Below the pieces are notes generated by a model, which saw only the letters and a list, made by a program, of their open reading frames with translations, did not search any database and was not told the DNA's origin. The translations under genes were made by a program, and so were the position numbers. A stretch of 64,000 bases of DNA from Callorhinchus milii (lineage: Eukaryota): contig NW_024704751.1 of assembly GCF_018977255.1 (NCBI RefSeq), positions 13,144,001 through 13,208,000 of the forward strand, read 5' to 3'. Shown here piece after piece: positions 18,244-21,200 of this stretch; position 1 is the first letter of the stretch; each line of letters opens with the position of its first letter.

Positions 18244-21200
18244 TCAGTCCTCCTGATGAGTGTCAGACTTGTAGCCACTCAGTGATCGGGATTTGGATCT
18301 GGACCGGGATCTTGAATGGGTGAGCGACCTGGATTGTGACCTTGCCTTGGAATCCTTTCTAGTTGCCGACTTTGATCGGGACACAGACTTGGATTTGGAC
18401 CTGGATCCTGACCTAGAACGTGACCGGGATCTGGACCTAGATCTTGACTTGGATCTGGTGTAGGAACGAGTGTGGCGTTTATGCCTAGAAATAATTAAAA
18501 AGAAAAATGAGACCATTAAATGCAATGTATACCAACAAGCTTTAAACCAACTTACACTCGTGAAGCACCTTCCAGAATGAACATCTTGAAGCACTTTGGA
18601 TGGAATGGTGAGCAAGCAAAGAAATCAAGAGATTTAAAGAAGTTGATGGAACTTCTATCAAAGGCATGATAGACGAGGTACTCTTAAGAAGGGAAAGAGG
18701 GAGCAAGGCAAGTAGTTTTGGAAAGCATTCCAGAGGACAAGAGCATAGTTGATAAAGGCCCCACCAATGGAATGAAGGGAGTGTGGAGCACGCAACAGAC
18801 CAGCCTGAAGGGCAGGTGGTACACTGGAAATTATTGCGTAGGTAGGATGGGCCAAGGTCATAATGGGATTCAAAACACCTTCAGCTAAAACACCAGTGTC
18901 AAGCAGCTGCTAGTACCAATGTTAACTGGTAAGGTTTCTATCCAAAAGATCTCCAAGCTATTCAATTCTGACCAAAGTATGCTAGTGAAAACAAGATGAA
19001 ATTGACACCAACTGCAACTTTACTATTGATGAAAACTCTCAGTACAAAGACGTGTATAGCATTCGCTCCTGAATGCCTTGACACGCGATCACTAAGGTAC
19101 TCTACACTACGTTACCTCTCGTTGAAAGAATTGCTTCGGCTGCGTCTGCGCTTTCCAGTCGATCTGCTTCGTGAACTGGAGGAGAAACAAACAAGGTAAA
19201 CCCAGAGTTCTATTAAATTTAGCACAAGGCACAACGCATTTGGCAAACAGCTCCTTACTTTTTAGGGCTATCAGATCTCCGGTGAGTACGTTCATATGAA
19301 CGGCTTCTTGACCGTTTCCTTTCGTAACTGCGACTTCTGGACCTCCTCCGTCGATCATATTCGTCATAGCGGTCATACCGAGGTGAACTTCGTGATGATC
19401 TTAATTCCTTTGATTTCATCTGACCAGGAGCTTTAATTACAAAGAGAACAAAATAGCTAATACTATTCAAGAACCCAAACCAAGCATTTACAAAGTTTTA
19501 AACCTTTAAATATGGCAAAGACCGAAGCTAGGCATGAACAGGTTTCCAGATATGCACTAAAACACAATGAATACACAAATCATTACCTTTCTACTGAAAC
19601 TGAACATAAGACCGAAAATAACTGTCTAGTGGTGATCATTTGATTGCCACAGATTGCTGAACTACGCTAACCTATTTGTTAGGTAAGGATATTAAGGGAT
19701 ATAGGGCAAAGCCGGGTAATTGGTGTTGAGGTATAGATCAGCCATAATCTTACAGAATGGTGGAAAAGGCTCAAGGGGTTGAATGTTCCATGCTTGAGAT
19801 AATAATAATAATCCTTGCATTTGATAAAGCTTCATCACGTCTTCTAGAAGTCTCAAAGTGCTTCAATTTGTAAACAATACTTGCAAAACAGAAATTATTT
19901 AAATTTATGAATGTATTAAAAGATTGAACTTACTTTTTCGATCGCCTTGGGCGAACTGGATCTCGATTTGGCGGCCACACACCCACTTCCTATCCAGATT
20001 GTGGAGTGCATCTTCGGCATCCCGAACGTCTTCAAACATGCTAAGCTGTTAAGGGGTCTTTGCACTTTCACAGGTTTCGAACAAATCCTACAACCTTCAA
20101 TACACATTTTTCAGCCGTAACATATTGCTTTGCCAGAACTTAGCTGTATTAATTAATCTGTACAGAGTACTTTTTTTTTCTATTCTTTGTTCCCATTCAT
20201 TGGCAAATTAGGTTTAGTAAAAATGCTGCAAACAAATGTAAACATGCAATACAGTGGATTCCTGTTAATGTCACATTGCCAGATTTAATTAAGCACAAAG
20301 GGTTTCACTCCTGTAAGATGTATTCTTTCACTGAGAGAAAAACAGTCAAGGTATGTGCAATTGTATTAGTTAAGAGGGAAAATGAAAAGCCTGGCTTTGG
20401 GGCAAATGCTCACCAGTTATTCCCAAGTGGATACATTAACATGCACAGCTAAAAAATGTTTTTTCTCTAGTTCACTCATTTCAAATTTGGAATCAGTCAA
20501 ATCTTTCCTTCAAATTTTCAACACGGATATATAAAATCCAAACTAGAATTGCAGTGAAGAAAAAAACAATAATGATCTACTCCAACAAAAGTGTCCCCTC
20601 CCCATCACCACATAAAATTATTCACGTAAAGAATGGGATGGAAGTTTATTCCCATTCATTGGCAAATCAGTAACGTTGTGTAGTGAAATGCAGAGCATTC
20701 TTGTTAATGTAATTTTTGCAAACAAACTTGTTAAGTATCAAGCGTTTCACTCTCGTAGTAAAGATTCTTCCTCAGAGAGAGAAAAAATAACACTCGAGGT
20801 GTGCGCAACACTAAGCCAGTAACACAGGGAAAGATGAAAGAAAGGCTTGGTCATTGGCAAGCACCTGCCAACACCACCTTAGTATTAATAACATGCAAAT
20901 ACTCATACCATTGAGGTCTGAATAAAGACAACAAGATAAGTACCTAGAAGTGTAATTTTGTGGTGACTGAGGCGACTGATTTCGGAGGAGGTATGAAACT
21001 TGCTGAAAGTAAACAAAATGAACTCGAAATTTGTAAGCTACGGGAATTAAAATTTACCTGGGGCAGTTTCAGAAAGTTACATGGATTGTTTGGGGGGGGG
21101 GGTGGGGGGGGGGGGGGGAAGAAGTGACAATGAAAAGCAACAAGTAGAATCCACTGCACTTTTAAAGAATCCTAACCCTCCTAAAATAGGACAGCTATAA

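Follow-up and report, generated by a model that had tools for sequence, protein, structure and literature searches.

SRSF10 carries a minor (U12) intron, and human, mouse, and zebrafish srsf10 are all tabulated as minor-intron genes (PMC11347168). The minor intron of mouse and human SRSF10 is rate-setting and competes with a poison-exon route that uses the major spliceosome (PMC7244321). The competition described for mammalian SRSF10 acts between 5′ splice sites, the rival major site lying a short way past the minor donor; in this autoregulatory switch, SRSF10 itself favours the inclusion of exon 3. RNPC3 knockdown showed that the mammalian orthologous intron depends on the minor spliceosome (PMC7244321). 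Human SRSF10 has a TAG 3 nt before its AC end, just as the locus described here has one before its AT end. The RefSeq coding transcripts are listed as AT_AC with 512 spanning reads, and the TAG is listed as the acceptor of a GT_AG minor intron from poison exon 3 with 35 reads (PMC8280824). PMC11347168 lists this exon-3 GT_AG minor intron as well.

Minor introns with AT-AT ends are a known subtype. Six human and six mouse minor introns of this kind have been tabulated, together with AC/AT switches between both species (PMC1557818). AT-AT is the second commonest non-canonical end in animals, with 701 conserved minor introns (0.952%), and AT-AG accounts for 658 (0.893%) (PMC10639083). The preliminary description likewise took it as established that U12 introns tolerate non-canonical ends. 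Eight human AT-AT minor introns are listed, namely in KCMF1, HNRNPLL, UBR3, IK, SMC3, TCTN1, ERCC5, and SRSF12 (PMC8280824). The SRSF12 intron (chr6:89105531-89107153, NM_080743.4) is annotated there as U12 AT_AT with an 11-nt spacing. In that table, the SRSF12 AT end rests on RefSeq annotation, since the gene is barely expressed in the tabulated cells.

The window, which is the whole 64-kb stretch of Callorhinchus milii DNA analysed here, contains an SRSF10 locus, as judged from its closest homologues and its neighbours. Over 170 aa, the spliced product of the locus was 93.5% identical to a pair of SRSF10 models from skate; its identity to mouse and marmoset SRSF10 was approximately 79–80%. 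Skate and catshark SRSF10 were the top matches of the coding exon at 19259..19430. The protein predicted from the window exons with the AT end has 248 aa and an RRM + RS architecture. A PNRC gene lies 3′ of SRSF10, and a connexin gene, a FABP gene, and an Ig/fn3 gene lie on its 5′ side; we take PNRC2 and MYOM3 to be the names of the SRSF10 neighbours. FABP + SRSF10-exon fusion models from a bird and a sturgeon map onto both genes in the window. No protein from the window's own species was identified in the homologue searches. SRSF12 was considered as the identity of the gene and was ruled out by the skate SRSF10 similarity, the match to the intron of the bird-like SRSF10 locus L002, and the PNRC and FABP neighbours. 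The features of the locus are listed in Table 1.

Table 1. Exons, minor-intron signals, and candidate poison-exon features of the SRSF10 locus in the window.
Feature	Position	Strand	Basis
Coding exon 1, ATG at 30867	30803..30867	-	Spliced product compared with skate SRSF10
Exon 2, RRM, ends with GFAYV and the CA of a Gln codon	24453..24557	-	Pfam RRM_1, E 2e-07
Minor (U12) intron 2, 4415 nt, AT...AT	20038..24452	-	Splice signals and reading frame
U12 5′ splice site ATATCCTTT	24444..24452	-	Directly after exon 2 end CA at 24453
Candidate poison exon 3, GA-rich; U2-type acceptor ends at 21853; 3′ end inferred	21490..21852	-	Homology to L002 intron
Degenerate site, putatively equivalent to the GT-type minor donor of exon 3	21481..21489	-	8/9 match with the bird/human site, G in place of C at +5; alignment not unique, homology inferred
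U12 branch site CCCCTTAAC, branch A 20049	20048..20056	-	Human SRSF10 lists an identical 9-mer
TAG, 8 nt past branch A, preceding the AT end by 3 nt	20041..20043	-	Shared with fish-like locus L003; human exon-3 intron acceptor
CAT, predicted productive 3′ end, 11 nt past branch A	20038..20040	-	Only end restoring YVQFED
Following coding exon (mammalian exon 4), FEDVRD...GDRK	19934..20037	-	Reading frame
Coding exon, RS region begins	19259..19430	-	Reading frame; skate and catshark SRSF10 matches
Coding exon	19116..19175	-	Reading frame
Final coding exon with stop	18244..18484	-	Reading frame

Judged by its sequence features, intron 2 is of the U12 type and would work like an A-type U12 intron. 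The 5′ splice site, ATATCCTTT at 24452, matches RTATCCTTT perfectly. The branch site CCCCTTAAC contains CCTTAAC, which fits CCTTRAC and lies 11 nt from the 3′ end; the position of the branch A follows from the U12 consensus. The 11 bases from the branch A to the intron end are mixed and contain no polypyrimidine tract, and the downstream exon opens with GTTTGAAG at 20037, its first base being G. The ATATCCTTT donor is common to the bird-like locus L002, invertebrate-like loci, and human SRSF10 and SRSF12, and U12 donors were present at this intron in seven retrieved loci among the matches listed. Counting both strands, the 64 kb contain RTATCCTT 5 times and CCTTRAY 20 times, so the placement of these motifs exactly at the two exon ends of an RRM is not attributed to chance. 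Within intron 2, no further perfect minor donor was found, and three sites had one mismatch. The next intron contains another RTATCCTT (19684–19697, minus strand), which overlaps a CCTTAAT and is probably there by chance.

The end of the intron was located by translating 22 acceptor positions in turn on the minus strand. The AT end alone gave GFAYVQFED and the 248-aa protein. The preliminary description had placed a donor after CA, a branch site, a TAG, and a CAT at these positions and had held that the intron appears to be AT-AT, with the CAT about 11 nt past the branch A needed to restore GFAYVQF. The assembly bears out the signals base by base, and the 22 translations agree with the predicted end.

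We consider it likely that SRSF10 intron 2 is a genuine A-type minor intron ending in AT, that its last base is loosely constrained, and that AT is an old state. The minor spliceosome would recognise ATATCCTTT as the donor and CCTTAAC as the branch site and would then take the A-N dinucleotide 11 nt downstream, so that RNP1 reads YVQF as usual. In Callorhinchus milii it would skip the TAG, which at 8 nt lies too near the branch point and is disfavoured as the partner of an AT donor. The AT end may be an old state common to other fishes and the paralogue SRSF12, and amniote SRSF10 has AC. The TAG may be a conserved second acceptor, which in human serves the GT-type minor donor of poison exon 3; this donor looks degenerate in the window.

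The end of the intron was compared among related genomic loci. The metagenome scan returned at least 29 loci. Of the 29 listed, 18 were uninformative on the intron end, being spliced, intronless here, or RRM genes of another kind. Among the matches listed, 11 genomic loci had a U12 branch site next to this exon, with AC ends in eight (two of them near-identical), AG ends in two, and an AT end in one. The branch-to-end spacing ranged from 9 to 15 nt across these 11 loci. The fish-like locus L003 has an AGCAT end at 11 nt, as in the window, and a poison-exon-like region upstream. Its first exon base is A, so its AT end is no ATG artefact. The invertebrate-like loci L006 (580–594) and L015 (1755–1773) keep the U12 branch site and end in AG, and their donors lie outside the contigs.

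Intron ends were also read from gene models and ORF calls, in which the read-through residue before FED was taken as the intron's last two bases (M and I as AT, T as AC, K as AA, and R as AG or CG). This read-out consists of protein models, so gene-model artefacts are possible and K, R, and I are known from protein alone; within it, the 180 proteins comprised 60 correctly spliced, 45 with an ORF-initial M, 24 with an internal M, 34 with T, 4 with I, 3 with K, 1 with R, 1 with F, and 8 without an anchor. An internal M requires a genomic ATG and therefore indicates AT|G. The internal M models came from sturgeon, characiforms, cyprinids, milkfish, damselfish, cichlids, a knifefish, a mormyrid, and a killifish, and the T models came from mammals, birds, a rattlesnake, and several teleosts. 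The alignment of the sturgeon model P0105 with the window (94.9% over 39 aa) spans the intron end, where both read LSM-FED. Protein models P0075, P0079, P0090, and P0017 carried K (three fish-like records) or R (loach), which suggests AT-AA and AT-AG ends. Taken from these models, the data suggest that all four last bases (AC, AT, AA, and AG) occur among fishes. The preliminary description had proposed a comparison of terminal dinucleotides across vertebrates. AT does recur in fishes and in SRSF12, and the same comparison shows it to be neither unusual nor lineage-specific.

The AT|G junction forms its own ORF and is therefore over-sampled. The 45 of 180 proteins with an ORF-initial M were left out of the frequencies because of GTG/TTG starts and ascertainment. 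AT|G is an in-frame ATG, and gene callers therefore produce truncated MFEDVRD proteins and mis-joined RRMs. The ATG lies at 20037–20039 (minus strand) in the window; the 45 retrieved proteins beginning with MFED are likely a gene-calling artefact, and SRSF12-like ORFs of this kind were seen too. The 44-aa ORF starting at AT|G had no exact match in the protein collection, which is uninformative.

The AT end was found in the window, in sturgeon, in several teleost groups, and in human SRSF12, and the AC end was found in amniote SRSF10 and most invertebrate-like loci. This by-eye comparison suggests that AT is either old in jawed vertebrates or easily recurring. The AC|G junction, a CpG, was present in six of the seven invertebrate-like AC loci among the matches listed, and intron 2 is CpG-depleted in the window (o/e 0.33). 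An exon-initial G was found in 5/8 human AT-AT introns versus 15/63 AT-AC introns (Fisher p = 0.035, a post hoc test on a small sample). AT|A rather than AT|G was found in three of the eight human AT-AT introns and in L003 (L003, SRSF12, UBR3, and ERCC5). CpG decay, in which deamination would turn AC|G into AT|G or AC|A, is a plausible but weakly supported mutational route. It is kept as a lead only, since the test was post hoc and small and the AT|A cases need a further step. No paper linking AT-AT with CpG was found in the open-access literature searched.

The occurrence of all four end states among fish models points to a loosely constrained last base. The recurrence of AT across many fish lineages could also be read as selection. 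Median minor-intron retention in healthy human cells was 0.074 for AT-AT introns (n = 8) versus 0.107 for AT-AC introns (n = 63; Mann-Whitney p = 0.74). This comparison concerns other genes in human cells, and its 63 AT-AC introns are a non-random slice from three parts of a table that lists approximately 177 A-type introns; among the 63 are a duplicated locus and an alternative acceptor.

The preliminary description had suggested that a weaker end could tune productive versus poison splicing. As an explanation, an AT end selected as a weak acceptor, which would depress productive splicing and thereby fix its balance against the poison-exon pathway, is unlikely. It draws on the rate-setting intron and its poison competition in mouse and human (PMC7244321), on a review in which non-canonical ends often splice at reduced efficiency in experiments (PMC3584512), on the commonness of AT in fish models and its presence in human SRSF12, and on the poison-exon homologue in the window intron. 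However, the four last bases among fish models and the human AT-AT introns without excess retention argue against it, and the competition that has been published involves rival 5′ splice sites (PMC7244321). The L002 match stops 14 nt into intron 2, and the region that carries the downstream major donor in mammals appears unconserved in the window. The best nearby GT after the minor donor (24345, weak) scores 4/7, and stronger GTs lie at 23824, 23149, and 22391, at least 628 nt away. With AT widespread, four apparent end states in fishes, no retention excess, and a competing donor not identified, the tuning proposal is unsupported. The primer table of PMC7244321 contained no 3′ splice-site sequence. 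A 10-nt candidate micro-exon (23150–23159, minus strand) was seen in the minor intron, running from a pyrimidine-rich AG to a strong AAG|GTATGT donor.

The poison-exon-like stretch in intron 2 has 76.6% identity over 346 nt to the L002 intron, and the acceptor context of candidate exon 3 is common to the window and L002. By analogy, candidate exon 3 would correspond to the mouse and human poison exon (PMC7244321), and its role would carry over. The counterpart of the exon-3 minor donor differs at +5, so the TAG may be idle in the window. A major-like AAG|GT lies approximately 25 nt upstream of 21481–21489 (minus strand) and is present in L003 and L001 too.

The transcript-like sequence L001 has exon-3-like sequence joined to the next exon with three extra bases, and L005 has an exact exon-2 junction to the next exon. 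As read from transcript-like sequence alone, both fit a two-acceptor design in fish, as in human. A tandem AG/CAY on one branch point was seen in the window (20041–20043, minus strand), in L003 (729–737), and in human SRSF10, and L001 (200–215) is comparable. The AG of the tandem acceptor was absent from birds in the sample. We speculate, with low confidence, that the SRSF10/12 intron of early jawed vertebrates was AT-AT with a conserved tandem YAG/CAY, served by a single branch point, that sorts GT from AT donors, and that a CpG-decayed last base, four-state among fishes, sets the autoregulatory set point of SRSF10; this one intron would then offer a natural allelic series. The GT donor of poison exon 3 would then join to AG and the AT donor of exon 2 to AY.

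Splicing of the AT donor mainly to the TAG would make an AT-AG intron with an in-frame YVHMF RNP1. The preliminary description had noted that the TAG at about 8 nt would give YVHMF, and the TAG acceptor indeed keeps the frame (YVHMFED, 249 aa); its role in human SRSF10 as the exon-3 GT-AG acceptor had gone unmentioned there. AT-AG minor introns are known (658, 0.893%; PMC10639083), the mammalian model P0157 uses the upstream AG with exon 2 (YVHTFED), and alternative acceptor use upon CENATAC loss is flagged for human SRSF10 (PMC8280824). This reading is nevertheless very unlikely. The distance of 8 nt is below the optimal branch-to-end distance of 11–13 nt, and AT-AG is disfavoured, according to a review (PMC3584512). 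The human RefSeq coding transcripts choose AC despite the same TAG (PMC8280824), YVQFED was present in 14 of the 15 listed members of the P0157 cluster, skate and catshark models carry YIQFED, and the extra residue would enter RNP1. GFAY stood shortly before FED in 86 proteins, of which 75 had an exact [VI]Q junction and one had the 3-nt insertion (YVHT); the remaining 10 were mis-joined models. The exon-2 donor may still use the TAG to a minor extent.

An assembly error or rare allele at 20038 in an ordinary AT-AC intron is highly improbable: assembly gaps and a duplicated segment occur elsewhere in the window, and 8 of the 11 listed genomic loci end in AC and only one in AT, but T is the expected base for fish because of AGCAT in L003, LSM-FED in sturgeon, AT in human SRSF12, and the internal M in 24/180 proteins. 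The search of sequencing runs listed no RNA run, and 6 of 24 runs held at least half of the sampled words, which resolves no single base. On the comparative sequences, the productive end is most likely AT, neither the TAG nor a sequencing error.

Several other features were observed in the window. N runs in CA-rich repeats lie at 5770–6208 and 7469–7724, each followed by near-identical sequence (the same ORF text twice), possibly a local duplication or an assembly artefact. A long C-rich tandem array (31270–31890, minus strand) lies just upstream of the SRSF10 CpG island, and a second C-rich array is near 29900–30250 in SRSF10 intron 1. A gene at 185–1419 (minus strand), presumably B7/butyrophilin-like, has an Ig V-set exon (Pfam) and a second Ig-like exon. 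Two partial tRNA-like Rfam matches (37022–37084 and 37606–37668, plus strand) are probably tRNA-derived repeats.

As a label for the SRSF10 control intron, 'AT-AC' does not hold across all vertebrates, and the AT end annotated in human SRSF12 may represent the older condition. If the four fish end states hold on DNA, one intron would test the in vivo weight of the last base of A-type introns, and the tandem TAG/CAY would be a test case for the first base of the donor choosing the acceptor. The AT-AT instance in SRSF10 appears to be new; the subtype, the regulatory intron, and the human paralogue case are already known. An AT-AT end of SRSF10 was unreported in the open-access literature searched, although per-species intron databases, figures, and supplements may already carry it; the main text of PMC10853781, PMC7367187, and PMC2831892, in the parts available, had no mention of SRSF10 or FUSIP1.

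The intron was compared with the three closest known systems. The AT end is most likely a tolerated variant that is also present in other fishes and human SRSF12, an ordinary end with no special switch, and the intron is probably a real, old, and near-neutral instance of the known AT-AT subtype. As in the window intron, the donor and branch site of the A-type AT-AT (AT-AN) subtype fit the U12 consensus and only the last base is non-canonical. Nothing differs in kind, and the window case is an autoregulatory intron in a cartilaginous fish. According to its listed annotation, the human SRSF12 intron shares the RRM position (CA | ATATCCTTT ... TTTGA), the AT-AT ends, the CCTTAAC, the 11-nt spacing, and the skipped upstream AG; unlike the window intron, it belongs to a paralogue, its first exon base is A instead of G, and its AG is 4 nt rather than 3 nt before the end. 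Mouse and human SRSF10, as far as described in the sources available, have the orthologous gene and intron, the donor, CCCCTTAAC, the TAG 3 nt before the end, and a GA-rich poison exon. The window intron differs from them in that its last base is T instead of C, its spacing is 11 rather than 10 nt, its exon-3 minor donor is degenerate at +5, and it has no identifiable downstream competing major donor.
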